The notes: a model not told the origin generated them from the letters alone. A stretch of DNA of 43,920 nucleotides, filler included, from Jimgerdemannia flammicorona (GCA_003990765.1; 2 parts of 2 records of this genome joined end to end with filler, not necessarily neighbours in it), one strand, 5' to 3'. Positions 1 to 39,973 are shown, numbered from the whole stretch's first letter. Translations and numbers: made by a program.

Positions 1-347
1 GCAGGCTTACTAGTTCCTTTGCTATCTCTTTGCTTTTGAACTATTTCGATCTGAGGTTTATTCACTCGAAGATACTGGGTTATTTATACAAGTTTGCTAG
101 CTATGAGAGGGTGGCTAAGTAATAAATGAGTCATTTGGACTTTGTCGAAACATTTGGACAATGTCTAAATGCTATACTAAATCGGGGTATTCGATTTGGA
201 TAATATCTAAAATTTAGACAATGTCTAAGAAATTAGACAATGTTGAAATCGAGGACTGCTAACTATAATACTATACTACTTTGGAAATGGGTGTGATTAA
301 GTGTCTATTCCCTATTTCCTTCTTCCAAATCTGGCTGTACCGTCACA
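1..347 (-). repeat. 3' LTR of E1 (partial)
   Basis: Matches 6258-6604 without gaps (offset 6257); minus strand begins TGTGAC right after a purine tract. Confidence 0.95.
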
Positions 348-357
348 ACTTCCTCCT
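348..357 (-). promoter_or_regulatory. Polypurine tract of E1
   Basis: Minus strand AGGAGGAAGT directly abuts the LTR start TGTGACG. Confidence 0.8.
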
Positions 358-384
358 GAATGGATGGTCTCGTCCCTGAGGCAT

Positions 385-846
385 CTATTCAAACTCCCAG
401 GCTTCAACGGTCTGTATGGTCTTGTACTGTGTAATTTGCTGCATAACTGTTTCCCAATGATGTCTTCTCACTTTCTTGAAGTCGGTAGGGATTACTCCTC
501 TCAGGTGGTCTATCGCTGCTTCATCTTCTCGGAATAACTTGTGGATCCTTTTGGCAACAGTGATCTGTGAGTGGGAGAGTTGACACTCGGCAATCCAGTC
601 CTCCTTGGTCTTTGCTGGATCCTGATTGAGCACCTGTCCAAGCTTGAAGTACTCTTGGAATTCTGCATGATATTGATAGGCTCTAAAGTGTGAGATCTAA
701 GAGAGATGAGTCTGCACAATACTCTAAATATCCTCGTAGAATGGCTCTATGGTCGGAGGCTCAGTGGTGTGCCATTGTCTTTCGATGGCTCTTTGGGCAG
801 CACTAGTGATCTTGAGTGCCATCGCAGTACTTTTGTTACTGGCCAT
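385..846 (-). pseudogene. Accessory ORF3 of E1 (~153 aa, two in-frame TAG stops), unknown function
   Basis: ATG at 846 overlaps the end of pol. Manual translation MASNKSTAMALKITSAAQRAIER...EFQEYFKLGQVL...QLSHSQITVAKRIHKLF...; similar to the LTR ORF of E3. Confidence 0.8.
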
Positions 847-3800
847 GGTATTTCTTGAGTCGGTTTCGGTGAATGGTGGTGGGGATTATTGTGCCTGAGG
901 GTTTTCGCAGCCAAAAGGTGGTTCCTTTTATATCTTGCACAAGGTAAGGTCCTTCCCACTTGGGCTCCAGTTTTCGTGACCATGAAGCTTCAACCATATT
1001 CCGATACACCAGGACTTTGTCTCCTATCTTGATGATCTCCAAGGGTTTGTGGGTCTTTTCCGCATTTCTCTGTTGTAGTGTCTGTGCCTTGGTTATGTAA
1101 TCCTCAGCCTTCTTCCTGATTTGGTGTAGTCTCCATATTTCCGTGTCCACATGTTTCCATATGACATCTCCATTGGATGATAGGGTTCCTTGAGAATATT
1201 CTTCTCCAAACAGCATTTCTCGAGGGGTAAAGCAGGTGCTTTGTGATCGGATATCCCGGAGAGCAGATAATGCTATTGGTAGATAGTGATCCCAGTTCTC
1301 GTAGTTATCACAGATCTTGGCGATAACATTCTTGAGGGTTTTGTTGGTCCTTTCTACTTGTCCGTTTCCTTGAGGGTGATAGGCTGTGGTCCGAATGTGC
1401 TGGATCTTGTATTTCTTATAGAGAACTTCGAAGAACTGGTTCACGAATTCGGTTCCTCTATTTGTAGTTACTTGTGTTGGGGTCTTGAACTGGCAGATGA
1501 TTTCCTTGTGGAAGAAATCAGCAATTGACTGTACATTGGCTTCCATAAGGGGTCCTGCTTCTATCCACTTCATAAAAAGGTCTACGATGACAATGATGTA
1601 TCAGTTGCCAGTCAAAGTCAAGGGTAGGGGGCTGATTACATCCATTGCAATGTGGGCGAATGGTACTGGTTCTATGTGTACTAATCCTGGGGCCTGATTT
1701 CGTTGGTCTTGTTTCTGTTTCTGGCATTTGTTGCAGGTCTTGACAAATTGTCTGATATCTTCCTCCATCCCTGGCCACCATATTGTTCTCCTTGCCTTGT
1801 CGTATGTATTTGTTCCTCCTAGATGGCCAAGTTCATATACTGATTTCATTGCTTACTCCTTCTTGTGTTCTGGTATGACTAGTAGTTTTCCTTTCTTCAG
1901 TGTTTCTCCATCGGTTTCAAATTGTTTCCATGTCCTGTTGATAATCGTTTGTGTCCATTCTTCCAGATGTTGGGGCATCTTTCGCTGTCTCAGGTATGTG
2001 ATGATTTCATAGTAGAGCTCCTTATTTATGATTGATTTGTTGGTTGGAGGTAGTTTGAGGTGTCCATGAGAGAACATCTGCATTGGAATTTGTTCTTCCA
2101 GGGTGGTGCATGATGGTTACATCATAGGCTTGTAACTTCATTATCCATCTGGCATAGATTCCCTTGGATTGTCCGGTTGTCAGTAGCCAGGTGAGAGCTG
2201 AGTGGTCTGTCTGGATGGTGAAGTGTCTTCCAGCCAGATAGTAGTGGAACTTTTCCACAGCCCAGATGACTGCAAGGCATTCCAACTTGTAGGACTCATA
2301 TTCTTTTTCAGCTCCTCGGGTTCCGCGGCTAAGATATGCAATAACATACTCTTTTCTGTCTTCTTTTTGAGCCAGGATAGCTCCTAGTCCTTGTGCACTT
2401 GCATCTGTCTGAAGGATAAATTCTTGGGTCCAATTGGGTCGTCTGAGGATGGGTACCTGAGTTAGTCTGACCTTGAGTTCGTCAAATGCTTTTTGTTGTC
2501 TGCCAGTCCACTGGAACTTGATATCCTTCTTGTTGAGTTCGTAGATTGGGCCTGCGATGTTGGAGAATTCTCTAATGAATCTGCAATAGTAGGAGGCAAG
2601 TCCCATGAAGGCTTGGGCTTCTGTAATGGTAGTAGGCCTTGGGTATGCTGCTACTGCTTGTATTTTGAGGGGGTCCGTGTGTGTTCCATCTCGATTGATG
2701 ATATGGCCAAGATAGGAGAACTCGATTTCCACAAACTTACATTTCTTGGGTTTGATATAAAGGCCATGTTGTCTTAGTCTCTCCATTATCTGCTGTATGT
2801 GCTGCAGATGTTCCTCGGCCGTCTTGCTGTAGATGATTACATCATCAATATAGACCATCATCCATCTTCCCATATTGTAGCGGAAGATTTTGTTCATCAT
2901 TCGCTGAAAGCTTGCTGGTGCATTGCACATTCCGAATGGCATTCGTAGGTAGATGTAGGTTCCGTCTGGGGTAATGAAGGCTGACTTTTCACTTGCCATT
3001 TCTGTGAGTCCGATTTGGTGGAATTCTGAGTATAAGTCCAGGGTGCTGTAGTACTGTGCTTCGTCTCCCAGTGTTATAAGGATATCACTGATGAGCGGCA
3101 GTGGTTGGCGATCCTTCTTGGTGACTGCATTGAGCTTTCTGTAGTCGATACAGAGCCTTGGGGCGAATTCTCCAGGTTTGCTTCCTTTTTTCGGGGCTAG
3201 TACAACTGGTGAAGACCAGGGGCTACTGGCTTCTTTGATGATGCCGGCTTCTTCCATCTGCTTGATTTCTTCTCTGAGCCATTCTTGGTAGGCTGGCGGG
3301 ACAGGTCTTGCTTTCTGGTAAATTGGTTTGGTGTCTCCAGTATCTACCTCATGATAGTAGTATGGGGTCTTTCCCTTGATATCCTTGAAATCCGTGGCAA
3401 GGACATCCTCGAATTTGTAGAGTATTTTCTTGAGTTTCTCCTTGAGTGGGAATTCGTCTCCAATGGTGTAACTGTGCTTGCTTGTGTTTTCCTCCTTCTT
3501 ATGCTCGAGTTCAGTGATCTTGGTGCTGGAAAATACTCCTCTTCCTGTGGATCCGAATCCTTTCTTTCTTCTTTTCGTTTCCTCCAGATTCTTGACTTCT
3601 ATGATCCTTGGCTGTATGATTGGGAAGATCAATATCTGTGCTAATCGGTCCTTCTTTTTGACTGGGAATGGAATTGTAGAATTGTGGTTCCTAGCAATAA
3701 GTAGAATTTCTCCCATATAGTCTGAATCAATGACTCCTCCTTCGATTGTGATTTCGCTTCTAGCCAGACTGCTTCTTGTCTTGAGAATCCCGACTTGATC

Positions 3801-4964
3801 CTTTGGGATGGTCATCTCCAGTCCAGTTGCGAGTAGGGTGGTTGTCTGGGGTTCCAGTACAGTTTCTTCTACTGTAGCAATGTCCATTCCGGCTGCATTT
3901 TCTGACTTGTAATCTGGCAAGACTGTATCAGGGTGGATCCTTCGGATCTTGACCTTGATTTCTTCTTCATCGTCACTGTCCTCCAGGAGGGCTGGTGGTT
4001 CATCATCTTCCTCCTTCTCTTCTTCTCTGATCTGTTTTTCGAGAGCTTTCTGGCTTCTTTCCTGGTAGATCTTCCTGATTCCGATAGTGCACTGGTAGCA
4101 ATCGTTGACATGCTCTATACAGTACATCTTGATTCCATGAGGACAGACTCCTTGTGGGGTATAGCCTTCGGCAATCTTCTTGCACCATTCTTCTTCACTC
4201 ATCCATCCAACTTTCTTCTTCTTTGGGGTAGTCACCATATAAGCTTCCTCTTGCTCACTCTCTTCTTCCTCCATATTGGGCAGAACTCTTTTGTTGACAT
4301 TGATGGGAATTCGTATCTTCTGTCCCTGATAAGTGATTTGTATCTTCTGGGTGTTGAGATCGATTACCGCCTTGGCTTTGTGAAGCCATTGATTGCCGAT
4401 GAGGATGTCATAGTTGGTGGCATTGGTTATGATTATATCTACTGGGATTGTTGCTCCTCCGATCTTGATGGGGACATCTCAGATCTTTCCCAGAGGTGTG
4501 GCTCTTGTGCCATCGGCTGTGACAAATACTAGCTTGGTTGCTTCTTCCACATCCCAACCTAGGCGGTCTGCTGCTTTCTTACTGAGGAGACATCCTCCTG
4601 CTCCTGTATCAATGATGGCCTCGAAGACTTGATCCTCAATTTGGCATGTTGCATAAGCGGAGGTTTTGCAATTGTTCTCACTTTCTTCTCCTGAGTCCTC
4701 TTGAACATTATTGGCCTCGGTTATCTTCCATCCTTGTTCCTTGGTTGTTTTGGCAAGTCCAAACCTCATTTGCTATCTGAATGTTGGGATTTCTGCGAGC
4801 TGACCAAAGGTTGCATTGACCTTTTGTTGACTGAGATCCTTGAAGATATCATACTTGAAGGTCTTGGTCTTGCAAAGCTTCTTTTCTTTTTCTCCTTCAC
4901 TGGCTGGAGTGGTTCCTCGGATGATATCTTGAACTGCTTGCTCTAGCTTGATATCCTGGTCCAT
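836..4964 (-). pseudogene. pol: pol of E1: aspartic protease, dUTPase, RT, RNase H, integrase (stops plus one frameshift near 2050-2080)
   Basis: AIIDTGAG (ORF 4479-4769); RLCIDYRKLN, YLRMPFG, VYIDD, LQTDAS, IQTDH (ORF 2022-4274); GHLG..WWPGM..CNKCQ (1601-1849); TAYHPQGNGQVER and WEGPY (836-1573). Confidence 0.97.
3543..3959 (-). other. dUTPase domain in E1 pol, between PR and RT
   Basis: Five trimeric dUTPase motifs: AGMDI, RSSLA, GVIDSDYMGEI, RLAQ, RRKKGFGSTG. Confidence 0.95.
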
Positions 4965-6013
4965 CTCTTTGGCTTAACTTTCTGTGGCAGTTTCCATCTG
5001 CTTTTCCACTGGGTTCTTCTTGGGTCTTCCTGGCAGTCTCTTGTAGGGTTCTTTGCGAACATCCTTCTTGGTGGTCTGAGCAGATAGGCCTCCCATTCTT
5101 CTTCATCAGAATCTCCGATCTCCTTGAAGGTAATTATATTGGCCTGCTCCTTGTTTCATATGGCATTGCTTGGTTGAGCCTTGCATTTGGTTTCACTCAT
5201 ACATTCATAGGAGTAGTGGCCTTCTTCTCCACAGCTGTAGTAGGTGCCTTTCTTCTTGTCTGAGGTGGCAGCAAACTTCTGAACAGGGCAGCGATCTCTT
5301 TCTCAGATTTCCTTTACCACATCTCCCAGGTGGGCAGTCATTTCAGCAAACCTTTTGGCAAGTTCCTCCATAGGGTCGCTGTTCTTTTGCTGCTCAGTAG
5401 CTTTTGGCTGAGGTGTGTTTCGATTGATCATTGTGGTGGGGATCACACTAGTTGCCTTGGGTGCCTCGATTCTGACTCCTGTAACTCTTTCCATTGTATG
5501 GTCTTGTGGGTGTCTGGCTGTCCAGTATCGCTGAGCATAGGTGACCCTCTGTAGTAGATCCAGAATCACTGGTGATGAGCGGATGGCCATGGCTATTTCT
5601 GGATGGACTCCTTTCATGAAGGTTGCTTCAGCTACTTGATCTTGGGTAGCAGCAGCATAATCTGCAAGAATTATCTGATATCGAATTCTGGTATAGAATG
5701 TATTTGGATCCTCACTCATTCCTTGGTACATTGTGTTGAGCTGATCCTTCAGGGCTTGCTTGATCTTGTCTGTGTAATATGTGTTTTGGAGCCAGGTCTT
5801 CTGTGCTGTCAGTACAGCATCGGCATCATTTCCTGCATGGGTTGCGGCTGTGAATACTGCTCTGGCAGGGCCTCATAGGCTAAAGGGCATGAGGGCTACT
5901 TGCTGTGCTGCTGTCAGAGTCCTTACGGCAGCATACTGCTCAAAATCATCAATGAAGGTGATGATTGATTCATCTGAGGTATATCCATGGAATACTGGCA
6001 GTCTCATATCCAT
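4945..6013 (-). pseudogene. gag: gag of E1
   Basis: RLPVFHG...FIDDFE capsid-like start, QG..E....FY.R motif, FMKGV, and degenerate zinc knuckle YYSCGEEGHYSYEC (~5200-5245). Boundaries approximate. Confidence 0.85.
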
Positions 6014-6110
6014 CTTGTCTGGATATTGGAGCTCGGTTTGTATAGTTGTTCGGGTAGTGGCGGTTGTTCATTGTTCAGCTTGAAAGTGAGGGATTCATCT
6101 TGAATCACCA

Positions 6111-6124
6111 GCCAATGGGCACCA
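6111..6124 (-). promoter_or_regulatory. Primer-binding site of E1
   Basis: Minus strand ...TTACA-ACT-TGGTGCCCATTGGC: TGG begins 3 nt after the 5' LTR. Cognate tRNA not assigned. Confidence 0.75.
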
Positions 6125-6127
6125 AGT

Positions 6128-6604
6128 TGTAACGTAGTGGATACTTACTCTTGAAAGTACATTGGATTTCTGTATCTTGAAAACTTGACTGTTCTGACTC
6201 TCGCAGAGTTTCTTGAAGTTGCAGGGGAGGGTGGGTGAGTTCGAAGTGTATCTGCTCGCAGGCTTACTAGTTCCTTTGCTATCTCTTTGCTTTTGAACTA
6301 TTTCGATCTGAGGTTTATTCACTTAAAGATACTGGGTTATTTATACAAGTTTGCTAGCTATGAGAAGGTGGCTAAGTAATAAATGAGTCATTTGGACTTT
6401 GTCGAAATATTTGGACAATGTCTAAATACTATACTAAATCGGGGTATTCGATTTGGATAATGTCTAAAATTTAGACAATATCTAAGAAATTAGACAATAT
6501 TGAAATTGAGGACTGCTAACTATAATGCTATACTACTTTGGGAATGGGTGCAATCAAGTGTCTATTCCCTATTTCCTTCTTCCAAATCTGGCTGTATTGT
6601 CACA
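6128..6604 (-). repeat. 5' LTR of E1 (477 bp)
   Basis: TGT...ACA termini; minus-strand TATAAATA (~6338-6345) and AATAAA (~6314-6319). Confidence 0.93.
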
Positions 6605-7460: not shown

Positions 7461-7699
7461 AAGGGAACTGATCCAATCTTTCTCTGATAACATTCAGGTT
7501 ATACAACCTTCTAATAATACTCATAACATAGTTTTTAGAGAGAAGATACTAGTAATATAGTGAGCAATAAGTATTTTGAGATACATACTGGGTAGGGAGA
7601 CCTAAGTACATTCAACTGACAATATGTAGGAAGGGGCCCTGGCTTGGAAGTAGTACTCTGAACAAGTTAATTTGAATCAAATCTGGATTCAATTTGTCA

Positions 7700-7955
7700 C
7701 ATAACAGTTTGATCTGAATCTCAAATCTGAAGCCATCCAAATCATCCCATCCAAATCACCCATCTGAACTACTCTAATCTGAATTACTCAATCTGAATTA
7801 CTCAATCTGAATCACTCAATCTGAATCACTCAATTCCAATTACTCAATCTGAATCCTCCAATTTGAATCCTCCAATTTGAATTCTCCAATTCAAATCCTT
7901 TAATCTGAATTCTCATCTGAATCCTTCAACCAAATCCTCTAATCCAAATCCTCCA
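7700..7955. repeat. hAT subterminal tandem repeats (~14-bp unit CTCAATCTGAATYA)
   Basis: Many imperfect copies; related ATCTGG/ATCC motifs at 13930-14045. Confidence 0.85.
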
Positions 7956-8149
7956 CATGACTCATATATCAGATGCATCCACAATACAGTACACACATAT
8001 ATACATATACATGTATATGTAAACATGCAAACATACATGTCAACAGATCAGTCTTCAACAGTTCACAGTACCAATGATGCTTTAAGTCAAACATCCCTGA
8101 TAGCTCCACACCTTCTACACAATCCTTGCTCTGAAATCTAGCAATATTG

Positions 8150-10620
8150 TGCTAAGATAGGATATGATGTTGTTTGTAATTATTGCAGGTAAAAAATTAA
8201 GATGCACCTATTGATACTTTTTGTTTATTTTGATACATACATGATATTGTTTCATCTACCCCCATGAACTGCATCAGCCAGAAGTTCAAAATACTTGGGG
8301 GTATAACTTTGAACATGAATCAATACATAAAAGACAAGCACTCTGACAAAATCAAAAAGAACACAAAGACAAATAAAATTGACATCCAAGCTGTGATGGG
8401 TATGTTTATCTGATTGCCCGACCATTTCTGTATCAACAATGCTGTTTAATCAAAAATATTTAGCCATACTCTTCAAAATCAGCTCATTCGCTAGATTGTG
8501 TATACAGACCAGCCATTCACAACCATTGAGAGTGATCAATTGTATAGCATCTTTGGCCTCCTCAAGCATGATTTATATTTGCCAAGTACCAATACTATTT
8601 GCAAAGATGTCCTAGAGGCCTATAGGAAGGAGTATGACAATCTCCACCAGATACTTCAGATAAAATAAGAGCAGTACCATGACCTTTATAAGCTGAATTA
8701 TATAAAAGAGCTCACCAATTTAACCTCATATTCCATAAGCAGAATTTGGCAGACAAAATTTTGTTTACAATCGATACATGGACATCCCCCAATGCAATTT
8801 TGTTTCTGAGTATTACTGGTCATTTGATTGACCTCAATTGATAGCTTAAATCTCTCACCCTTGACTTTGTCAAACTTGCTGGCTCTCATTCTGGAGACAA
8901 CATCATAGATACTTTTATTAGTTGTATCCAGGAGCTTGGGATTACCACCAAGGTAAAAAAGGGGGGCTTGCTGCAGGTTGGCATTTTGAGAGAGGTCCTA
9001 AACCAAATCAGATTTTATTGGTTATTTATTTTCACATAAATTCACTGACTGAATATTTCAAGTACAGATTTTGGCCATTATGATGGATAATACCACAAAT
9101 AACTCAACATTTTTCAAAGTTTTAGTGGCCAGCCTCAAACAGGAAAATGTGGCCTTTGGTGCAGAAAGCTGCCATGTGCAATGCTAGGCCCACATACTGA
9201 ATCTCACTGTTTAGGACTATCTTATATACATAGACAAAACATCTGAGAGAGGAGGGGCCCTGAGTATAATTTTCAAGCTGTACAACCTGGTTATGTCAGT
9301 CTGATCATCCCCACAATGATGAGACAAATTCACTGCACAGTGTAGGGCAATCAGTTTAGCCCTGAAAGAGCTTATATTGGATATCTATATGTATTGGAAC
9401 TCAACATTTGCAATGATCTAGCATGTGCTGGAGTTTGCTGTAGTATATATCCTTTTTTTCTTCAGTCAGCTGAAGTAACTTGTTTCAAATGATTGAAGAT
9501 TTATTTAAAAAAAAAAAAAAAAAAAAAGCCAATAGATTCAACAGTGGCTGCCAATAAGGAAATATAGGCCAAGGCTCTAGGTGAAAGTGAGTGGGATGTA
9601 CTTAGAAATATTGTCAGAGTTTTGGAAGTAAGTGGTGATTACTCTGGCTCTACACTTATTTTGTTAGCCTCTATACTTGTTTTGTCTGCCTCTGCACAAT
9701 GCAACACCTCACCACATATAACTGCCAGTGTTTCAATGATTGTATGAAGGATATAGTCAAACAAATGATCCTGACAATAAGCTCAGCAATACCAGTATAT
9801 AACCTTCTGATTGACCGGCTAGAGAACAAGCTCAAGGACAGGCTGAAGGATTGCAATGATTTACGGTTGAGCCTGGATCAGAGAGATGTCATAGATATTG
9901 CTCTTAGCAAGCTCAGAAAGTACTACTCCCAAACAGATACTGCTGTATACTCAATCAGTACAGGTATATCGATGTCGATGTCAGTATGTAGCCATTGCCC
10001 CTTCCAAAACAGAGAAACCCTCACAAAAACTCACTCTCTCCTCTCTTTCGAACAGTGCTGGACCCATGCTTAAAGCTACAATACTATAAAGATCAGGGCT
10101 GGGAGCAGTACTTCATTGAGAGAACTAAGCAGGCCATAATCGAAGTGTACTGGAAAAACTATGTGCCACCACAAGGTTCTGGCTGAAGTCTGGATGAATA
10201 TGCTAAGAGATCCCTCCTGTCCCACATTTACTTCAGCAGAAAGAGAAAGAGGGAGCCATCAGTAGAAGAGCTGCCATCAATAGACAAACTTACCATTTAC
10301 CTTGCCAGCGACCATATAATCCTGCTGGAGGGTGCAGAGGTGCTCAACTGGTGGAAGGTAGATTGTCAGGTGGGCATTGGGCCAATTTAACCCCCCAATC
10401 TAACCACTGCTCTACCTACCGGAGCATGCAGCTGTGTCAAATGGACTTCCCCAGCCTGTGTAGCATGGCTCAGGACTACCTGGCAATTCCTGCCTCCAGC
10501 GCTCCTGTCGAGTGAGTGTTCTCAGGTAGGGTGGACCTTGTTGCCCCAAAGAGGTGTGCGCTGAATGCTGAGACAATCTGGGTGTATATGTGTCTGAAGT
10601 CTTGGTGGGGCTTGGGCCGC
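8150..10620 (+). pseudogene. hAT transposase, multi-exon, decayed
   Basis: Manual translation: CNYC (BED-like), QPFTTIE, IDTWTS, GSHSGDNI, DNTTNN, C*AHILNL, YWNST, KLRKYY, VLDP, LNWWK, and DYLAIPASSAPVE*VFS (hAT dimerisation region). Segments separated by GT-AG introns; ends approximate. Confidence 0.93.
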
Positions 10621-10779
10621 TAAAATTCAGTAGGTCCTGGGGGTTCATGGATAAGTTGGTTGGCCTTGTGGAATATTTAATATCTTTCAAAATAATAAAA
10701 AGGTAAAAAACCCTGAGAACTCAGCCCAGAGTTTGTGGCCCAAGTGGGCAGCAGTCAGCAGGGTTGGCGGTGGCAGCAG

Positions 10780-11400
10780 AGAGAGTGCACAATGTTTGCA
10801 GCCCTCTGCCAGTAGCAAGGAGCAGCCCCAAGCTATCAGTGCCTGGGTTGGTGGGCAGATCAGCAGAGAGAGCATATAAAATTTGTGGCCCTCCGCTGGC
10901 AGCAAGGGGCAGCCCTAAGCCGCAAGTGTCCCAGTTGGGGGGGTTGGTGGAGGGAGCATGCAAAACTTGCAGTCCTCCATCAGTAGTGAGGGGCAGCCCC
11001 AAGCTGTCAGCACTCAGGTCAGTGGGCAGGGTCAGTCAGCAGGGTTGGTGGGTGTGGGGTCGGTGGAGGGAGTACACAAAATTTGCAGCCCTTCACTGGC
11101 AGCAAGGGGCAGCCCCAAGCTGCAAGTGTCCAGGATGGGTGGGGCAGGTGGAGGGAGCATGCAAAATTTGTAGCTCTCTGCCAGCAGCGAGGGGCAGCCC
11201 CAAGCTATCAGCACCTGGGTCAGTAGGCAGGGTTGGTGGGTGCAGGGTCAGCAAGAGAGCATGCAAAATTTGCAACCCTCTGCCAGCAGCAAGGGGCAGC
11301 CCCAAGCTGCAAGTATCTGGGACAGGTGGGGCAGGTAGAGGGAGTATGCAAAATTTGCAGCCCTCTGCCAGTAGTGTAGGGGCAGCCCCAAGCCACCAAG
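10780..11400. repeat. Imperfect tandem array, 7 copies of core GCAAAATTTGCAGCCCTCTGCCAGCAGCAAGGGGCAGCCCCAAGCT
   Basis: Cores near 10790, 10875, 10960, 11075, 11160, 11262 and 11347, with G-rich linkers of two related types. Confidence 0.9.
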
Positions 11401-11629
11401 GAGTCTGGAGTAGAGGGTGCTTCTGGCAGTTAGAGGGTACTTCTGGCAGTCAGAGGGCATTTCCAGCAGTCAAAGTCTACCGCAGATTCAGGTCCCGTCA
11501 CCAGTTCAGGTCCCATAGGCACCCTGGCCCTATACTGCAGCACTGTACCAGCAGTACTGTAGAGTAGGGCCAAGGGGCCGGTAGGGCCCTGAATAATGGC
11601 TAAACTAGTGCTACAGAAGAGGTATCTGG

Positions 11630-11735
11630 CCCAACCCCCTACAAAAGACTGCCCAACCTATATAAAATGACTGCCTAACCCTCACAAAAGACTGCCTATC
11701 CCTTACGAAAGATTGCCTAACCCTCACAAAAACTG
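11630..11735. repeat. ~21-bp tandem repeat (CCCTCACAAAAGACTGCCTAA) x5
   Basis: Directly visible just past the cargo-gene stop. Confidence 0.85.
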
Positions 11736-11750
11736 CTCCACCTGCCAGTC

Positions 11751-12990
11751 TCAGGCCTTGATGAGCCTATCATCTATTGTGAGTATGACAACTGTTATGT
11801 CTGAGCTCTCCTTGAAGGTAATGGTATCATGGTAATCATGTAGTTGGAAGAGGATAGCCATGTTGGCTGCAAACAGGACCCTGAAACCATAGATGAGGTC
11901 ATACCAGACTCCACTGCTATCCTTCCAGGTTGGGCCCTTCCTTTCCAGAATGTAAAACATTACTGAGGTGACATTGTTATCTGTGTGTATGAGTAGAGAA
12001 AGGTTGTGCCTGACATATCCTGATGTGATGTAAGCATATGGTTGAGTGAACCCTTGGCCCAGGACCTCATACTGCTAGGCTGTGCTGGTGGGTACCTACT
12101 CCTGGTCCAGCCCCAGGAGCCCTGGCTTGGAAACCTGCCAAAACGGACAGCAACTGATCAGTCCTTTTTGCATGTGGGGGGGCAGAAGCCTCCCGGACCA
12201 CAGAATCCCCCCAGGCCACAGAAACCCCCCAGGCTGCAGCACTCCAAAAAAGTGGAGCTCCTCACCTCATATGGTACACTAAATTGTGCCAAGAATGTAT
12301 GTACAGCTATACCGAGATCACCACCAAGCTGGCCTGCCATATGCTCTACCAATCTACTCAAAGAACCCCAGATCATAGCCACCATCACCACACAGGCTAT
12401 GTCATGCTTGCACACAGTTTGCTCTTCGATAGCACTTCTAAAGTTCTGGTAGGGGTACAGAATCTTATGTATCCCTAGATTTGTATCAAAAAGAGTATAT
12501 CAGCGAAGAGTGTGATTTATCTGGGGAGGAGTAAAAAAAAAGGGAGATGAGTGTGGGGGATTTCAGAACTCTGGAACCCACCCTTTGCCAGTGTTGCAGT
12601 ATATCCAATTCCCATCCAAATCCCCTCTCCTTACTTTTTTCACCCCCTCTTTCCTGCTACCTAGTATTTGATGCAATCCTTGCAAATCTCATTGATGTGG
12701 TGGTGAAGCTCATTGCTGTAGAGGTTTCTTACCACCATTGCAACCACCTCTCCATATTCATTAATAAAGATATGATTCTCTTCATTGTTGGTTACTCCTG
12801 CTGGCCAATGGACCCCTTGGTCGAGAACAATTAGCTCTGATTTGAATGTAGACCTCCAAGTCTTGATGACAATGCTGGTACTGCTCATGCTGAACATCTT
12901 GCCCTCAAATTTCTCTATTTGATCAGATGCCAGATATGGTTGAACTTGGGTAACTTTGAACTCTCCTTTCCAATGGAACTGAGTCCTGAT
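11751..12990 (-). pseudogene. TET/JBP-like Fe(II) dioxygenase cargo gene; core exons 12990-12661, 12520-12266, 12134-11751; further 5' exons possible up to ~13750
   Basis: GT-AG phase-0 introns join three exons in frame, with four stops revertible to CAG/CGA. HxD (HTD at 11987-11979), distal His (11831-11829) and double-stranded-beta-helix-like strand pattern. Family assigned by recalled motif similarity only. Confidence 0.72.
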
Positions 12991-13014
12991 CTGAGAGATC
13001 GAGATAAGTGTACA

Positions 13015-13095
13015 GATAGGTTATATGCAGATGGGTTGTGTGTGGACAGGTTACATGCAGATGGGTTACATGCAGGTGGGTTGTATGCAGGTGTG
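13015..13095. repeat. 15-bp tandem repeat (GGGTTACATGCAGAT-like) x5, in a probable intron
   Basis: Directly visible. Confidence 0.75.
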
Positions 13096-15195
13096 GGTGT
13101 TTTTTAGGGGGAGACCATGTAAAAAATGAAATTAAATAAAACATAGAGATGGGTATTTCAGAAAAAGAGCATGAGTGAGTGAGTGAGTGAGCTGCATACC
13201 AACGAGTTGCATGCTGATGAGTTGCACAAGATTGCTCATAAAGGCTTACTTTTGTTCCTTTTGAGATCTCTGCCATATGATGCATTGACTCAACAGCTCA
13301 GCCACCAAAGGTATGCCCCGCAATATCCTCCAACCTTTCTTCATCTTGACCAGATGTTGCGAATAAAGTCAGCAGATCTCGCCATAGAGCTATAGACCCT
13401 AAGAAGAGCATGAGGTGAATTGGGTCATGCTGGGGGAATTTAAACAAGTAGCAGCAGAAAAGAGCAACCTATATCTACTACCAGCTGCTCCAAAAAGGCT
13501 GCTGTATACATAGCTGTGAGGTCTGTGAATTCCGAGGTCCGAAGGGCCACTGTGAGTTGTTGCTGGAATTCACCCTCATCCCCACCATCACTATCGCCAT
13601 TGCATTGCCATTGTCACCACTGTTGCCCCTTTGGCTCTCGATGAGCAGCTTGTGTACTGCCCATATGAGAAAAAATCTAACATTGTCAGCAGAGAGTATA
13701 TTTCTACCTCGAATACTCCCTCTTTTAATGATCATTGCAGGGTGAAAAATGAGTAGACTGGACCAATATACAAATTAAGGGCTGCTGTTTTGTTTACTCA
13801 TGATGCAGCAGGAAAGAACAAAGAACAAAGAAAAAAGAGGAAACAAAGGAAAGAGTAATGTCACCAAAGTGTGACAGGAAAAAAAAAACAAGAGTGAAAT
13901 GAACAAAAGAAAGGGTGATGTTACTAAAGATTTCAATCCAGATGGATCAATCTGGATTATCCAGATCAGATCACAAGACCAATCTGAGTTGATTCGAATC
14001 CATCACATAATGAACCTAAATTGAATCTCATCCAGATCAACTCCATTTGTTTGGAGTACTACTTGGAAGGAAGCATGAGAGACTTGCTGGCAGGAAGATA
14101 TAGTAGGAGAGAGAGCAGTATTGGAGGACAGAGGATTGGGAAGGCAAGCTTTATAGATAAGATAAAGGAGAGATAGCTGACAACTAGACTAGAGAGTTAG
14201 CTGAGGAGGGGCAAGAAGACAATAAAGAATATAGGACAGCAGCTACAGGGGGGAGTCTCTCTGGGGGGTCAGAGTAGTGGGGCTAGCAGTATAGTAGCTG
14301 AGGGGTAACTGCTAATGGAAGTATGACAGGTAATCTGGAAAAAAAATCTAGATAGAACTACTGATGGTAGACCAAGTTGTGGGAGAGATATAAGACCTAG
14401 TAACCTAGCTAATAGTGTAATAGGCCTAGTAGTAGTATCATTACTCAAGAAGTCAATCTCAGAGTTCATAGTTATCTTATACTTCTGGAGCTTAATAGTA
14501 ATGGCAAAAATGGTCCTGAGGCTGATTGTAAAGCAGATGAATAGTGTGATATCTATTAAGTTCCTAAGGGGTCTGGAAGGAGTAAAGATGAGCTTTAAGG
14601 AGGTTGGGTTATTAGAGGATGCACTGAAGACTAGGTTGATGATTAGGGAGATATGTATCCTAATGGCACACTGCTTGAGGTGGAATTCTAGAGTGGTATA
14701 GCTCCTAGTAAAAGGGATTCCTATAATGACTGCTGTAGAGATAAGGAGGAGAGTTGAGGAAGTCATGACCAAGTACAGAGAGGTGGTTGATGTCAGGTTC
14801 AGGGTCTGAAAAGGGATCTCCTTCTAGATAGAGAATGTTGACATTCAGATTCAGTTAGCAGGGAGAGAGGCTACTGAGAAAGCTTGTGATTGGCCTTCTG
14901 TAATAGTGTGGAGAGTCTTCATGTATAAGGTAATAAGAGTGAAGAGGAGTAAGGAGAAGAAAGAGGACCTGTTGGAAGTGCTGGAGGAGCTGAGTGATAT
15001 AGTAAAGTAGAGGACAAAGACTTAGAAGGCATATGTAGAGTCAATGTACTTGGAGATTATTGGTAGAAAGTACATCTATATTAATAAGAGGCTATAGAAG
15101 ATATCTCAAGGATATAAGTGACAGAGAGAGTTGCTGGTGAAACTAGAGAGAGAGGTGAAGAGGGCTGGTGGTAGTAGTGAGGATACTGGAGATGC

Positions 15196-17527
15196 CTCCC
15201 CTGGGATTTCTGGAAGCGAATGGTTGGAGTCCCAGGCATATTGGGGGAGTTGATGGCAATGTGTGACTCTATATTGCAGTCAGAGAGATGGGTGGGGGAG
15301 CAAGACCTTGGGCTGGTGACGCTGCTCTATAAGAACAAGGGAAGGCAAGAGGATTGGAGGAACTGGTGGCTGATAATACTGTTAGATATGGACAGGAAGT
15401 TGGTGACTAAGGTGGTGGTCGCAAGGCTACAGAAGGTGGCCCAGCAGATTGTGGGTATTGAACAGAGGGGCTTCATTGGGGGTCAGCTCATTAGAGATGG
15501 CATGGCCTGGGTGCATGGAGTTATTGAAGGTGTTCGAGCCTGTGGACTAGATGGGCGTCTTGTCTTCTTGGATCAGGAGAAGGCTTATGACTGGGTATGG
15601 CAGGTCTAGCTGGTGAAAGTATTAGATAGAATTGGAGTTCCGGCCTCATTTCGGTTGGTGATGGTCAGTCTACTGGAAAGGAGTAGGGCTGCGCTGGTGT
15701 ACAATGGACATCAAGGGGTGGCCTTCCCTCTGGGCAGGGGAGTGCCCCAGGGGGACCCACTGTCCCCCATTTTGTATGCTCTTTCCTTGGAACCTCTCAT
15801 GGACAGGATTCGGCAGAGGATCGTGGGGCTATCTATCTATGGAGTTGGCTGGAAGGTTGGAGCCTTTGTGGACGATATGGTGGTTGGTTTGGGGGTGACT
15901 GCGGATGTCGAGGAGCTCCAGAAGACAGTGGAGTGGTATGAGGCGAACTCTGGGGCAAAGCTGAATTGGTACAAGTGTGAGACAATGGTGCTAGGCAATG
16001 GCTTGGTGGGTGGGGAAGTCATTGGAACAATTGTCCCCACCGGAGAGGCAGTGCGGTACTTGGGCATCTATTTGTCAGTCTATGGGTCTGTTTTGCCCAG
16101 GCTGTGGTGGGAGCAGAGGATTGGAATTTGGGAGGAAGACCTGCGGGGTTGGGGAGGTAGACACTTCTCTCTGGCAGGAAGGATCTCGATTTTGAATGTT
16201 TACTGGCTGCCGAAGCTGTGGTATTTGGCCTACCATCTGGACTTCCCAGCCTGGGTGGTGAAGAGATTGGTGAAGGTGGCCAAGGGATGGATTTGGGCTG
16301 GCAGACAGAGTCAGATTGGTTGGGAGACTCTGTCCCTACCAGTGACAAGAGGTGGTCTTGGGCTGGTGGACTTCCCCAAAAGACTACACTGCTTGCAGGC
16401 ATGGTGGCTGAGGAGGGCGGTGGAGTTGCATGGAGGGGGCTGGGTCCCCTTGCTGCAGAAGATATGGGAGGGGAGGACATCACCTAGAGGCTCGACTGGC
16501 GATCTCCTTTCATTGGTTGGGCTTCCGAACACTGCGTAACTGAGATATAAAGGCTTCTGGTGGGGTATAGCTGAGGGGGCACACCGCATTGGTATTCGCT
16601 GGCAAGGGGATGAGAGGGAGAGGGCTTGGGGCCCAGCGATGTGGAGATGGGATTGCATTCTTCTGGAGGGCGTGCCTTTACTGGAGTTCAACATTAGTGA
16701 TGGCGTCGAATGCCAAAGGGGACCAGACCAGGATCTGTGGCCTAGTGGTTGGCAAGGAGTTGGAATTGGTGAGGAGTGGGACTGGCATGGGGTTTGGACC
16801 TGGAGTGCTGCAGTGAAAAATTGGATGCCGCTGAAGTACTGGATAGTCTGGTGGCGTGTGCTGAGGAGGAATGTGATGCTTAACTTCCGCTCAGGACACC
16901 TTGTGGTCGGAGGCTGCTTTGACTGCGAGGAGTGCCATAATGTAGGGCAGGAAGGGGGATTGGTACAGACGCCAGAACATTGGCTAGGGGAGTGTGAGGT
17001 GTTGGGAGACTTTTGGTGGGCCATTGGGGACCGCTTGGGGGTAAGGCGTAGGGGTGATGATGTACGGGGGAGGTGGGAGGACCTGAGGGATCGATTGATA
17101 GGAGGGGTAGGGGAAGAGTGGATTATGCTAGGCTGGACATTGGCTATTTGGGTTGGGCTGGCCGGACACTGACTATTTGTATTTGAGGAGGAGAAGCGAC
17201 AGAGCTTGGGGAGCAGGTTAGCAAGGTGGCAGTTCCTTATGGAGGATACCTTGATGGGATGGTGGCTTGGCTGGGGGCTGCAGGGGGGCCGGAGATACTG
17301 CTTAGTGGTGAAAATCTGTGGTCAGAGTGGTGGGAGAGTTGGAGTTATTGGTGAGAGGGTGGTCTTTATATGTGAGGAGGTGGGGTGGGGCCCCTCGATG
17401 GGGATTGGTTAGTGGGTGGTTATATTGTATACTTATTTATAGACTGGTAATAAAGACAGAGTCCAAGAGACTATAAAAATAAAAAAAAATAAAAAAAAAA
17501 AAAAAAAAAAAAAAATAAAAAAAAAAA
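15196..17527 (+). mobile_element. 5'-truncated L1/Tx1-like LINE (LINE-B) with poly(A) tail
   Basis: 15-bp TSD GGATACTGGAGATGC (15181-15195, 17528-17542); AATAAA at ~17449; A-tail 17473-17527. Confidence 0.95.
15220..17412 (+). pseudogene. LINE-B ORF2 (RT and C-terminal Cys/His region)
   Basis: DQEKAYD, GVPQGDPLSP, FVDD, YLGI, GGLG, C..C...TPEHWLGEC; several in-frame stops. Confidence 0.95.
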
Positions 17528-17897
17528 GGATACTGGAGATGCTAAAGTAAGTGTCTGGACCAGCAGAAGTAGAGAGAAAGTGGAGGTGGGTCTGGAGGAG
17601 GCCAGGAAGACACTGAGTAAGGACCTATATAAGGATGATATGTTTGAAGTCTAGGAGGATACCCCTCCTTCTCTTATCAGGTGGAGACCAACTATAAGAA
17701 GTCAGACAGTAGAGGATATACTAATGTATAGTACTCAGCAAGTACACTTTGGAGTTCCTGAGGTGGTGAAGGAGGGACAGATAGTAGCAGTTAGTAAGGA
17801 TGAACTAGTGGATATCTCAGAAGAGGAGTGAGATAAGACTATGAGTACAGAGACAGATACCTCAATACTGGGTAGAGGAAGACCAGTGACTCCAGAG

Positions 17898-18321
17898 TAG
17901 TACTCTCAATGAATTGAATTGAATCGAATTTGGCCCAAACTCAATTTGATTTGATCAAATCAAGGGTCTAATTTGATTCAATTCGAATCAAATCAAAGGT
18001 CCAATTTGATTTAAAGTTCGATTCAAACCTTAATTTTCAAAATGTAATAACTCAACGAAAACTCATCCAAATTTAACATATTTTAGCTTGTTAGATTCAC
18101 TGTATTAATGTGATTCTAACAAGCTAAAGTATGTTAGATTTGGATGAGTTTATGCTGAGTTATTGCATTTTGAAATTTAGGATTCGAATCAGACTTTCAA
18201 TTTAATTTGACTTTTGATTTGATTCGAATTGATTCGAATTGAAAAATCCCCAATTCGATTCAACTCATTTAACCCTTAATTCAATTCGATTCAAATTGAT
18301 TCAACTCATTTGGGAGCACTA
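17898..18321. mobile_element. Non-autonomous hAT-type MITE (424 bp)
   Basis: TIRs TAGTACTCTCAATGA / TCATTTGGGAGCACTA; 8-bp TSD CTCCAGAG / CTCTAGAG (one transition); internal hairpin and ATTCGA-type repeats. Confidence 0.9.
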
Positions 18322-18767
18322 CTCTAGAGAGAAAGAAGGTGAGAAACCTACTATAGATATGCTGAATGATAAACAACTTTGTAGCTGAAGAGCTGAGAGC
18401 AGTGGACCTAGATGAGAATTAGGTAAGGATTATATATAGCAATAGAGTAGTAGAGGCATTGAAGACAGAGATACTTGCAGTTTTTCTAGAGAAAGAAGGA
18501 TATGAGGTTGATAAGGAGAGAGAGGCCAAGCTAGCAGTTGCTGCTGGTGAGCAGGCTGCCTTCTGTTGGGTAGAGTATTATAAATTACAGCTCTGGCAGA
18601 AGGCCTGCCTAGAGTATCATGAGAATTTTGAAAAAAAGGAGGATGGAAAACTAACTGAACTTCTGATTAGATTAGAGGTAAGGAGAGTTGAAGAGGAGGA
18701 GATGGATGTGGAATACAACTTGGACTTGGCACAGGAAGAAATAGATATAGAGTTATAGAGGGTGAGT

Positions 18768-21577
18768 ATGACTCTTAATATTATTTCTTATAAATAGTAC
18801 AATAAATATTTTTTCTTTGAATGTAAATGAGCTGTGGAGTTCAGTTAGGTATTGGAATATTTTTACTTGGTTAAAGAGCTTGGAGGCTGATCTCTTTCTT
18901 CTGCAGGATATTAGATGTGAAGATGACTTGAATAGACTGAAATAGGCAATAGAATGGAGAGGTGCAGTAGTTTGGAAGAGTAAGGTTGGGATTCTGATAT
19001 AGAGAGGTAGAGGGAAGTTATAAGATATGAGAAGCTGGAGGGATAGGCTGGTCTAGAGAGAGTGGATTAGACCAGGTTGGAAGCCAGTTGTAGTGGGGTC
19101 CTACTACTGCTCTACTATATGCAGTAAAAGAGTGGATTGGGTGAAGGGACTCCTGGAAAGTAGGACCCTCATGGGGGCTAAAGTGGACATTCTTGAAGGG
19201 GACTTTAATATAGTCCAGGAGGCATTGGTGGATAGGACTGATAGAGGGTAGGAAACTAGAGGCAGAAGTGGGGAGTTAGAGATATGAGAGGAAGTAGAGA
19301 GACTGAGTACTCTAATAGATACTAACAGGGGGTTTTGGGGGGATCAGAGGGTATATATATACTGGACAAATAGTCTGGACATGAGGATTGACTAGATGCT
19401 AATGGTGGACTGCTGGGGCTTAGATATTTAGAAGTCACTAGAGGCTGAGTGGTGTCTGTAGTCTGATCACTAGAGACTATTAGGACAGGGATATTTCAGA
19501 GAGAGTGAGGATAGACTTGGACATTGGTACCTCAATTCCTCTTTATTGGATGAGAAGAGTCTGTGGGACAAGTAGGCAGAGGACATTTGGCAGAGAATGG
19601 AGGGCTGGGTACAAGAGGGGGCTATGATTAGTATCTGGTAGATGAGGTTGAAGGAGGCTGCTAGGGTTTATTGAAGTAAAGCTGGTAAAGTGACAGGAGG
19701 ATAGAGGAGGAGAAGGGTGACCTGGGCTTCTGCTAGATTGGCTAGGCTTTTGGAAGACTGGGCTAGACTCTTGGTCCAGGAGGAGATAGAGGACTGGGGG
19801 GTGATACAGGTGAGGCTAGAGGTTGTGGAGTCACAACAGATATTGAGGGAGGAGGAGGAGATGAGAGTGTAGAGTTTGGCTGCACAATTACACTGGTAGA
19901 GATTGGAGGAGAGAAAGAGGCCCTCTAGGTATCTTTCAAGGACTCTTTGGGTGAGAAGAGTGAAACAGTGATAGGAAGGGGTTCTTGATTCTGGTAGTCT
20001 ATTGGTGTATAGTTTATAAGACATTCTGGACTCATTGAAGAAGAGGTGGAGTGGTTTGTAGAGTGAGGAGGAGGGTGGGACTGATGCTGCCACCATTGAA
20101 CATACTTTGGAGAAATGGAACTCACTGTAGATTGATGGGCTGGATGGCTTGGTGGTACCAGTTCAGGAGGAGGAAATTTGCCAGGTTCTTACATACTGTA
20201 ACTATACTAAGCATGGTACTAGGAGAGAATGGTCTGCCCTGAGACTTTTGGAAGAAGATGGTAGATGTCCCTGAAGTGATGGGGGAGTTGATGACACTTT
20301 GTAACTTAGTACTATAGTCTGAGAGATGGGTGGGGGAGCAGGATCTGGAGCTAGTGGCTCTGCTCTTTAAGGACAAGGATAGGAGGGAGGACTGGAGGAA
20401 CTGGTAGCCCATCATGCTACTGGACATGGACAGGAAGTTGGTCACTAAGATAGTGGTAGTGTGGCTGCAGAAGGTGGTCCAGTAAGTCTTGGGTGAGGAG
20501 CAGTGAGGTTTTATAGAGAGTCAGCTCATTAGAGATAGTATAGTCTGAGTATACAGTATTATTGAAGAGACTCAAGCCTGTGGACTGGATGGAAGATTGG
20601 TCTTCTTGGATCAAGAGAAAGCATATGATTGTGTGTAGTGAGTCTGGCTGATGAAGATTCTGGACAGAATTGGTGTCCTGCAGCAGTTCTGAGTTATAAT
20701 AATCAGTCTACTGGAAGGAAGTAGAGTAGTGCTCATGTACAATAAGCATAGAGGGGTAGTATTTCCTCTGAGGAGGGGCATTCCCCAGGGGGACCTGCTT
20801 TTCCCTATCTTGTCTACTCTATTCTTGGAGCCATTGATAGATAGGATTAGACAGAAGATTGTAGGGCTCTCTATATTCAGCATTGTATAGAAGGTTGGAG
20901 CCTTTGCAGATAATATAGTAGTTAGTCTGGAATCAATTGCTGATGTCAAGGAACTCAGAGAAATAGTGGAGTAATATGAGGCACACTCTGAGGCTAAACT
21001 TAACTGATATAAGTATGAAATAATAATATTAGATAATAGCCTGGTGGGAGGAGATATCATTGAAACAATTGTTTCTGCTGAAGAGACTGTGAGGTACTTA
21101 GACATCTATCTCTCTGTATATGGGTTAGTCCTGCCATGACCTTGGTGGAAGTGATGAGTGGTCATATGGGGGGAGATCTTGTGAGATTGGAGTGGCTGCT
21201 ACATTTCTTTGGCAGAGTACATTACAATTTTGAATATCTACTGGCTACTGAAGATGTGGTATTTAGTATACTATCTGGACTTTCTAGCCTGGGTAGTGAA
21301 GAGGCTATTGAAGCTGGTCAAAGATTGGATCTGGGCTAGGCAGAGGAGTCAGATTAGCTGGGATATCTTATTACTGCCTATGGCTAGAGAAGGTCTAAGG
21401 CTGGTGGACTTTCCAAAGAGGTTGTATTATCTAAGAGCATAATAGTTGAAGAGAGTAGTCGAACTGAGGAGTAGTAGCTGGGTTCCTCTGATAAAGAAGG
21501 TCTGAAAGATAAAGTGCTCACTAAGAGAAATTACTGGGAATTTACTATCCTTAGTTAGGCTTCCAGATAGTGGGTAT
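18768..21577 (+). pseudogene. LINE-A ORF2 relic (AP endonuclease and RT)
   Basis: LNVN.L, ADLFLLQD, GDFN, RID, SDH, WYLN, DQEKAYD, GIPQGD, FAD; very many stops. Confidence 0.88.
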
Positions 21578-21912
21578 ATGAGCGTGACCATCTCTCTCCA
21601 CTACAATTCACATTACACGCACTTTTCAACACACTTTCGAAGCGTTTATTGGAGAAAAGATACTAAGGCAATGTCAACCAGCAAGCAAGCCGACGCATGT
21701 ACTAGGTCGGGTGGACCTGGGGCCTTCGACTGGCAGACTGTCGGGAGAGGGTATGGATTGGGGATGGGGTCCTTCGGTGGCTCGAGTGGGCAGGGTGGCT
21801 CCGGCAGTGGAAGTGGCACTGGAGGGGGGGCTGGAGAGAAGCAGGGGAGGAGCTTTGCGGACACGCTGAGGGGTGGGGGCTGGCCATTGGGCACTCGTGG
21901 TGGACCGGCGGG
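21578..21912 (+). mobile_element. 5' end of a younger LINE (LINE-C): 5' UTR and Gly-rich ORF1 start, cut by the gap
   Basis: MSTSK...AFDWQTVGRG matches LINE-D ORF1 start AFGWQQVGRRG; retains many CpGs. Confidence 0.75.
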
Positions 21913-22012
21913 NNNNNNNNNNNNNNNNNNNNNNNNNNNNNNNNNNNNNNNNNNNNTTAATTAATTAANNNNNNNNNNNNNNNNNNNNNNNNNNNNNNNN
22001 NNNNNNNNNNNN
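21913..22012. other. Assembly gap with artificial linker (44 N + TTAATTAATTAA + 44 N)
   Basis: Exactly 100 bp and symmetric; the linker puts stops in all six frames. Confidence 0.97.

Positions 22013-28749: not shown

Positions 28750-28821
<72 letters not shown>
28750..28821. repeat. ~72-bp poly(T) tract
   Basis: Directly visible. Confidence 0.95.
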
Positions 28822-28825
<4 letters not shown>

Positions 28826-39970: not shown

Positions 39971-39973
39971 AGT

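Follow-up and report, generated by a model that had tools for sequence, protein, structure and literature searches.

The stretch of DNA analyzed here (the window) comprises 43,920 nt in two joined records of Jimgerdemannia flammicorona with filler, and all coordinates count from its start. Within it, positions 7651 to 14061 form one element of 6,411 bp that carries two genes lying tail to tail: the remnant of a hAT transposase gene on the plus strand and, converging on it, a second gene on the minus strand. An earlier reading made from the sequence alone (the sequence-only reading) had described this locus as a hAT transposon with a spliced TET/JBP-like dioxygenase gene as its cargo. On the evidence presented below, we assign a probability of about 0.72 to the view that the element is a decayed copy of a once-autonomous hAT transposon with a convergent, intron-containing gene for an Fe(II)/2-oxoglutarate (2OG) dioxygenase of the TET/JBP group. 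Its ends and its transposase gene are as follows.

7643 to 7650, no strand: left copy of the target-site duplication (TSD), CTTGGAAG, 8 bp, identical to 14062 to 14069.
7651 to 7665, plus strand: left terminal inverted repeat (TIR), TAGTACTCTGAACAA, with 13 of 15 bases equal to the reverse complement of the right end.
8252 to 10650, plus strand: degraded hAT transposase gene in three frames, from Pfam and PDB searches and stop counts.
14047 to 14061, minus strand: right TIR, the reverse complement of TAGTACTCCAAACAA, from the inverted-repeat survey.
14062 to 14069, no strand: right copy of the TSD, CTTGGAAG, adjoining the right terminus.

The limits that the sequence-only reading had set at 7651 and 14061 were borne out, as CTTGGAAG flanks both imperfect TIRs. 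The 15-bp TIR consensus is TAGTACTC(T/C)(G/A)AACAA, and 13 of its 15 bases pair between the ends. In an inverted-repeat survey of the region, in which 25 of 38 pairs were examined, the left and right TIRs were the only inverted pair framing the element. If the TSD is read as 7 bp, the ends become unequal by one base, and the 8-bp reading fits. A TIR-like 20-mer in intron 2 of the second gene (12238 to 12257; 85% complementary to the right TIR) was dismissed, because the survey contains chance pairs of comparable similarity.

The transposase gene contains 18 in-frame stops in the six frame segments that were read. When the stops of 10207 to 10650 were read through, Pfam returned Dimer_Tnp_hAT (PF05699) with an E value of 4.9e-10 and 39.5 bits, against a cut-off of 21.4 bits, with the C-terminal hAT dimerization domain at 10441 to 10605. 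The same read-through retrieved Hermes transposase from PDB as its four best matches, all of them weak (E 0.026 to 0.036). The RNase-H-like DDE core was sought in 8692 to 9040 and 9053 to 9451, for which neither Pfam nor PDB gave a match; RNase H2B, a PDB match of the core region at E 0.11, was dismissed. The motifs ..IDTWTS.., ..MMDNTTNN.. and ..C.AHILNL.. are visible in the translation and look hAT-like. Since the Dimer_Tnp_hAT match, the Hermes matches and the 8-bp TSD agree, the assignment of the element to the hAT superfamily, as originally proposed, is sound.

The second gene had also been placed correctly, on the minus strand and convergent with the transposase gene, and every peptide quoted for it from the sequence alone was found in our translations. 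Its coding parts were delimited with two protein relatives, both encoded on ENA metagenome contigs and derived from two different samples. P0002, a 128-aa fragment, was retrieved when open reading frame (ORF) 12661-13020 was run exhaustively with HMMER against 1.84 billion representatives. P0006, a 136-aa fragment, came from a word-based search with ORF 11751-12074. P0002 was the only credible match of its query among these representatives; the other three of the four HMMER matches (P0003 to P0005) were bacterial NHL-repeat proteins and were dismissed as repeat or composition artefacts. No longer protein relative was found with ORF 11751-12074 or with alignment A1, which together with A2 makes up a pair of two-row alignments covering the two halves of the product of the second gene. 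JGI metagenome contigs scanned with A1 and A2 yielded 23 and 507 pattern matches, respectively, none of which was confirmed. From its 5' end onward, the gene is made up of the following parts.

12582 to 12960, minus strand: first coding part, frame 0, with ungapped homology to P0002 and three in-frame stops (12661-12663, 12640-12642 and 12631-12633).
12521 to 12581, minus strand: candidate intron 1, 61 nt, GTGGGT...polypyrimidine...CCCCAG, from our own reading of the sequence.
12266 to 12520, minus strand: middle exon, frame 2, with one in-frame TGA at 12500-12502.
12135 to 12265, minus strand: intron 2, 131 nt, GTGAGG...GGCAG, as drawn in the sequence-only reading, leading from frame 2 to frame 1; homology to P0006 starts 9 nt past its acceptor.
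11730 to 12134, minus strand: last exon, frame 1, with three in-frame stops (12096-12098, 12075-12077 and 11751-11753).

This structure revises the model drawn from the sequence alone, in which exons 12990-12661, 12520-12266 and 12134-11751 were spliced in frame. GT and AG do occur at the borders given for those exons, and intron 2 was retained as drawn, but the start of the former intron 1 is coding, and the last codon of the former exon 1 is a TAG stop in the same frame (12661-12663). P0002 aligns with frame 0 without gaps, with 42 of 116 residues identical (36%; E 4e-25; tblastn 12921..12574). The homology crosses the TAG at 12661-12663 and then runs on, ungapped, for 29 more codons to about 12574; therefore, at least the first 87 nt of the former intron 1 are coding. 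The first coding part as listed above takes in the first 79 nt of that intron. Candidate intron 1 is the sole short intron that can be proposed between frame 0 and frame 2, and in this copy its phase is off by 1 nt.

At the other end of the gene, P0006 is 71% identical to the last exon over 132 aa, and the homology reaches 11730. The stops of the window at 12096-12098, 12075-12077 and 11751-11753 correspond to Q, W and W in P0006. Because the last of these stops is a W in P0006 and the homology continues beyond it, the protein extends past 11751, the position at which the product had been thought to end. The gene thus holds seven in-frame stops over its three frames (three, one and three), and yet, judged by these two alignments, it is a real, conserved coding sequence.

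The last exon encodes the HxD...H triad recognized in the sequence-only reading, with H-T-D at 11987 to 11979 and the distal His at 11831 to 11829, 52 residues apart. Conservation of these residues, which had been put forward as a check of that reading, was seen in both of the two copies that cover them (the window and P0006). The window and P0006 likewise share an Arg in ..DDRL.. (11768 to 11766), 21 residues past the distal His, a candidate 2OG-binding residue. The middle exon probably encodes the helical insert of the domain.

Genes of the TET/JBP group are carried by 11 DNA-transposon lineages of fungi, hAT included, and fall into three types designated PU, AG and PE (Kojima 2025, Biology 14:1741, PMC12730594; cited here from the portion of the article and supplement at hand, to which all statements on this study are limited). 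We compared the second gene by eye, with no computed statistic, with the PE-type proteins printed in Table S1 of that study (PMC12730594). These proteins are the closest protein similarity found, and they are colinear with the gene product, by eye, over the whole domain (PMC12730594). Shared by both are ..GE(I/V)VAMV.RN.., ..YG.R(V/I)...(A)N(T/S)......(Q/K)P.D.HGT.. and ..T..RL(I/V)K (PMC12730594). The P0006 block GGIWYDLTYGFRVPFAANTAVLFQPHDLHGTVA is identical to a block of EnSpm-22_AB at 17 of 33 positions, ungapped, over the stretch that begins with the GG preceding the last strands and ends with the HGT containing the distal His, and YGEVVAMVVRNL matches TGEIVAMVYRNF of Helitron-1_TuBo at 8 of 12 positions by eye. 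Further colinear matches are N(Y/H)IF, INEI..(D/E)C, (I/M)GY(T/S)A, FD, (A/L)(M/L)(I/F)W, ..ER, located past the HxD strand, and, at the end, ..T..RL(I/V)K. In the middle exon, ..VAMIWGSLSRL...FL.. aligns by eye with ..FALFWNMARKL...FL.. of the PE-type proteins. From the His of HxD/E to the GG, the spacing is 24 residues in this gene and 23 in Helitron-1_MoIm, and the Arg of ..DDRL.. corresponds to ..RL.. in seven of the eight PE sequences whose printed part extends to the C terminus of the domain.

The gene also differs from the PE type in several respects. HxE is the hallmark of that type (Kojima 2025, PMC12730594) and was present in 10 of the 10 sequences compared, whereas this gene and P0006 have H-T-D. 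About five extra residues precede HxD in this gene, and the ..RKGD.G.. segment of the PE type is replaced by VAGKRG..GEG, about three residues longer (PMC12730594). Five PE-type carriers are named, and no hAT is among them in the portion at hand (Kojima 2025, PMC12730594); the carrier found here, a hAT, falls outside these five. In Pezizales, the PE type is carried by Helitron1 and IS3EU (Kojima 2025, PMC12730594). NgTET1, CcTET, CMD1 and human TET2 resemble the gene product in their HxD...H facial triad, whose members are similarly spaced (about 50 residues), and in the chemistry on modified DNA bases that we propose for it; they show no sequence similarity to this gene detectable by Pfam or PDB searches. 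The predicted structures of PE-type proteins, in turn, match CMD1, NgTET and CcTET (Kojima 2025, PMC12730594). From these by-eye alignments, homology of the second gene to the PE-type TET/JBP proteins is very likely, and the gene is best read as encoding a TET/JBP-like dioxygenase.

How far that assignment can be carried depends on whether the gene might belong to another branch of 2OG-Fe(II) oxygenases (for example, prolyl-hydroxylase-like, PF13640), or encode no oxygenase at all, in which case it would not act on DNA and the PE likeness would be superficial. Several results weigh against a TET/JBP identity and lend this alternative some weight. The profile search proposed with the sequence-only reading found nothing: Pfam, including Tet_JBP (PF12851), gave no relevant match at E values up to 10 for any fragment of the gene, P0002 or P0006. 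PDB sequence searches with the fragments, P0006 and the two-row profiles A1 and A2 retrieved no TET, CMD1 or other 2OG enzyme. AlphaFold2 models of A1 and A2 reached a mean predicted local distance difference test (pLDDT) score of 33 and 41, too low for a fold comparison. In the ESM Atlas, 25 of the 30 clusters nearest to the C-terminal ORF were 2OG-FeII_Oxy_3 and not Tet_JBP, at a weak score of 0.91; the match shares 138 of 256 features, under the level usual for same-family matches. The link of the gene to TET/JBP comes from the PE-type alignment, which was made by eye, and an Arg found directly before the last strand in some PE sequences is missing from this gene. Moreover, the published PE-type assignment is itself remote, since the type is connected with TET/JBP only through similarity of predicted structures and through HHpred, at an E value of 1.4 to CMD1 (Kojima 2025, PMC12730594).

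On the other hand, the PE match is colinear over the whole domain, includes the ungapped block of 17 identities in 33 positions and keeps the same metal-ligand spacing, and a passenger gene on a DNA transposon is the exact setting of the published TET+ elements (PMC12730594). The blank profile searches, too, fit a PE-type relative, as the PE type, like this gene, is too remote to be detected by ordinary profiles (Kojima 2025, PMC12730594). The Atlas score and the 138 shared features are such as distant relatives, or chance, would give; this result is a weak lead to the 2OG-Fe(II) oxygenase superfamily and not to TET/JBP. We therefore regard another oxygenase branch, or a non-oxygenase, as unlikely. 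The TET/JBP-like character claimed in the sequence-only reading is accordingly supported by the colinear similarity, judged by eye, and by the weak Atlas lead to 2OG-Fe(II) oxygenases, but by no hidden Markov model (HMM) search or fold test.

Other matches obtained in these searches were set aside. Sub-threshold Pfam matches to YphA, LRR_2, NPCC, RPW8 and FBP_C, taken over all fragments and relatives, were dismissed as noise, and the PDB matches of the second gene to superoxide dismutase, nitrile hydratase, FUS, coatomer and ribosomal P0 were at chance level. With P0002, the ESM Atlas gave no usable feature match, and every structure row had a template modeling (TM) score of <0.5.

We then turned to sequencing runs that were screened for words of the element. 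One run was listed, X1, a public soil metagenome represented by Logan contigs, in which 8% of the 31-mers of the element are present (share 0.08); no RNA run was listed. X1 contigs, about 150 to 220 nt long, were placed on the element at 80% likeness. In total, 1,829 contigs matched at 80 to 100% identity and covered all 30 bins of the element: 199 at ≥99%, 448 at 95 to 99%, 785 at 90 to 95% and 397 at <90%. They differ from the element at 538 transition and 21 transversion places. The transposon family is thus abundant in this one soil sample.

Whether the dioxygenase gene belongs to this family as cargo, or is instead a nested fragment of another element in this lineage of copies or a one-off capture, was judged largely from the same contigs. 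Counted at the 40 variant sites with the best support, distinct contigs numbered 2 to 18 per site in the transposase gene, 6 to 15 in the dioxygenase gene and 3 to 14 in the right arm and terminus; contig numbers are thus similar over the transposase, the dioxygenase gene, the right arm and both termini. All of the joints examined (15 of 16) fell in the tandem-repeat tracts 7776-7933 and 10710-11686, and none of them bypasses the dioxygenase gene; those within 10710-11686 imply that the repeat copy number between the two genes varies among copies. The contigs also differ from this copy at single positions of the gene: at 12633, G in six of six contigs turns the TAA stop into CAA, and at 11992, seven of seven restore the Pro seen in P0006. 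The survey of 25 of the 38 inverted pairs revealed no internal TIR, TSD or Helitron-like end around the gene, and the 3.4 kb from the transposase to the right TIR has no other coding capacity.

Nesting or a one-off capture would agree with the lack of a hAT among the PE-type carriers named in the available portion of Kojima 2025 (PMC12730594) and with the variable tandem repeats that separate the two genes. It would also agree with the length of the X1 contigs, none of which physically joins the transposase to the dioxygenase gene; this counts against the cargo interpretation, and contigs do not prove that other forms are absent. That no intact copy was seen is a further weakness of the main interpretation. 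Set against the even contig numbers, the joints that leave the gene in place and the missing internal ends, we consider such an origin improbable and hold, with moderate confidence, that the dioxygenase gene is probably cargo of the family.

hAT and other DNA transposons capture host fragments, and the gene might accordingly be a piece of a host gene acquired by transduplication that was never functional for the element; its function cannot be read from a dead copy. However, the whole domain is present, with introns and an upstream region, and the protein collections that were searched yielded no full-length relative standing on its own. Those described proteins that come closest to it are, moreover, transposon-borne themselves (PMC12730594). 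A host fragment is therefore very improbable, well behind either of the two alternatives discussed above.

As the sequence-only reading had stated, this copy is dead: both genes are full of stops, so the copy can do nothing. P0006 and the window differ at 38 amino acids. C>T/G>A changes in the window lineage account for 26 of these, among them each of the three stops in that part; six of the remainder are C>T/G>A in the other lineage and six are explained by neither. The ratio of observed to expected CpG is 0.13 in the element, 0.21 to 0.37 in the rest of the window and 0.25 overall, and TpG and CpA, but not TpA, are in excess in the window. Among the 40 best-supported variant sites, 31 are window-specific C>T/G>A sites, with A as the next base in 15, C in 13 and G in 3, a count in which shared CpG sites are hidden by the selection of sites. 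Judging from the CpG, TpG, CpA and TpA values, deamination of methylated CpG would fit the pattern better than classic CpA-directed repeat-induced point mutation.

The author of the sequence-only reading knew of no hAT-borne TET/JBP gene. This has been overtaken by the description of 20 TET+ hAT7 families in six Puccinia species (rusts), with a 7-bp TSD and a PU-type gene (Kojima 2025, PMC12730594), the only study on hAT-borne TET genes found in our literature search. TET/JBP cargo on DNA transposons, hAT included, is therefore already known. Like the element described here, hAT7 of Puccinia is a hAT transposon with a TET/JBP-like dioxygenase gene beside its transposase (PMC12730594). The TSD made by hAT7, however, is 7 bp long, and that of our element is 8 bp (PMC12730594). 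The one PU-type sequence compared, printed beside hAT7-1_PGr (GGTMWADGWRK..., HFDSDANNWTLV...), is less like this gene than the PE sequences are (PMC12730594). In three hAT7 families, the TET gene precedes the transposase and points the same way, whereas here it lies downstream and is convergent (PMC12730594). The one hAT7 terminus compared, that of hAT7-1_PGr, starts with CAACGG, compared to TAGTACTC in this element (PMC12730594).

Exact-word look-ups in the part of the Kojima 2025 supplement at hand (PMC12730594) gave no occurrence of HTDNN, NNVTLV, QPYAY, YGFRV, VAGRRG or LVLRD, which indicates that no family in it is closely related. The TIR word TAGTACTC occurs there once, inside a Kyakuja sequence, and was put down to chance; the DNA entries are at most 400 characters long, which makes this look-up weak. 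Relative to the published elements, the new features would be the pairing of a PE-like enzyme with an ordinary 8-bp-TSD hAT and the presence of HxD within a PE-like sequence.

If a copy were intact, its transposase would be expected to cut the element out and insert it again, and the product of the convergent gene would be an Fe(II)/2OG dioxygenase acting by oxidation on 5-methylcytosine (5mC) or another modified base in DNA. Such oxidation may relieve methylation-based silencing and lower the 5mC deamination that erodes transposons in this CpG-depleted genome, to the benefit of its own family and perhaps of other elements in trans. An anti-silencing role has been proposed for all TET+ elements (Kojima 2025, PMC12730594), and by analogy this element might be called self-demethylating. 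The copy at hand, which is full of C>T/G>A changes and lies in a region with strong CpG depletion, displays the very outcome that the enzyme is thought to prevent. Transposons with their own DNA-demethylation enzyme would represent a striking counter-defence, the idea and breadth of which were published in December 2025 (PMC12730594), and a PE-like sequence with HxD would help to root the PE type, which is highly divergent. More tentatively, and in our estimate doubtful rather than probable, the gene may belong to a fourth, as yet undescribed branch of transposon-borne TET/JBP dioxygenases, PE-like with the ancestral HxD and a possible source of the HxE-bearing PE type, on an 8-bp-TSD hAT that is abundant in a soil eukaryote and may keep intact, active copies there that protect themselves from cytosine methylation and deamination.

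The remaining features of the element are repeats, a palindrome and the region upstream of the dioxygenase gene.

7733 to 7953, no strand: subterminal 14-bp tandem repeats (ATCTGAATTACTCA and variants) inside the left end, from the repeat survey.
10750 to 11400, no strand: G-rich tandem repeats between the two genes, with units of about 85 to 187 bp, from the repeat survey.
11509 to 11588, no strand: imperfect palindrome between the 3' ends of the converging genes, with 37-nt arms that are 73% complementary, from the inverted-repeat survey.
11629 to 11736, no strand: 21/43-bp tandem repeats at the 3' end of the dioxygenase gene, from the repeat survey.
12961 to 14046, minus strand: upstream region of the dioxygenase gene, a putative promoter and 5' untranslated region, with 15-bp tandem repeats at 13013 to 13090; covered by X1 contigs.

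A 286-aa ORF at 10707-11567, which runs across the G-rich tandem repeats, is probably a repeat artefact and not a gene. The palindrome at 11509 to 11588 may be a candidate shared terminator of the transposase and dioxygenase genes. No homology was found for the upstream region at 12961 to 14046.

Outside the hAT element, the window is a nest of Ty3/Gypsy elements with dUTPase domains. A Ty3/Gypsy long terminal repeat (LTR) retrotransposon occupies window positions 1 to 6557 on the minus strand; its ORF at 2022-4478 encodes an aspartyl protease, a dUTPase domain (E 1.9e-26), reverse transcriptase and RNase H, and an integrase is encoded at 836-1600. The positions 1 to 300 and 6258 to 6557 form direct repeats (at least 300 nt, 95% alike) that resemble LTRs of this element. 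More Gypsy-type remains lie at 25057-25626, at 31606-33341 and 39973-41710, and at 34467-35183; among them are another dUTPase fragment, an integrase carrying an H2C2 finger and two long direct repeats 8.37 kb apart that are 93 to 94% alike. Over 14001 to 24000, the window shows strand skew, with a GC skew of about +0.34 to +0.44 over 14 to 22 kb and of −0.51 at 22 to 24 kb. Runs of about 50 A at 17475-17527 and about 70 T at 28750-28822 account for many of the "inverted repeat" pairs, and these runs may be the poly(A) tails of oppositely oriented retroposed copies.

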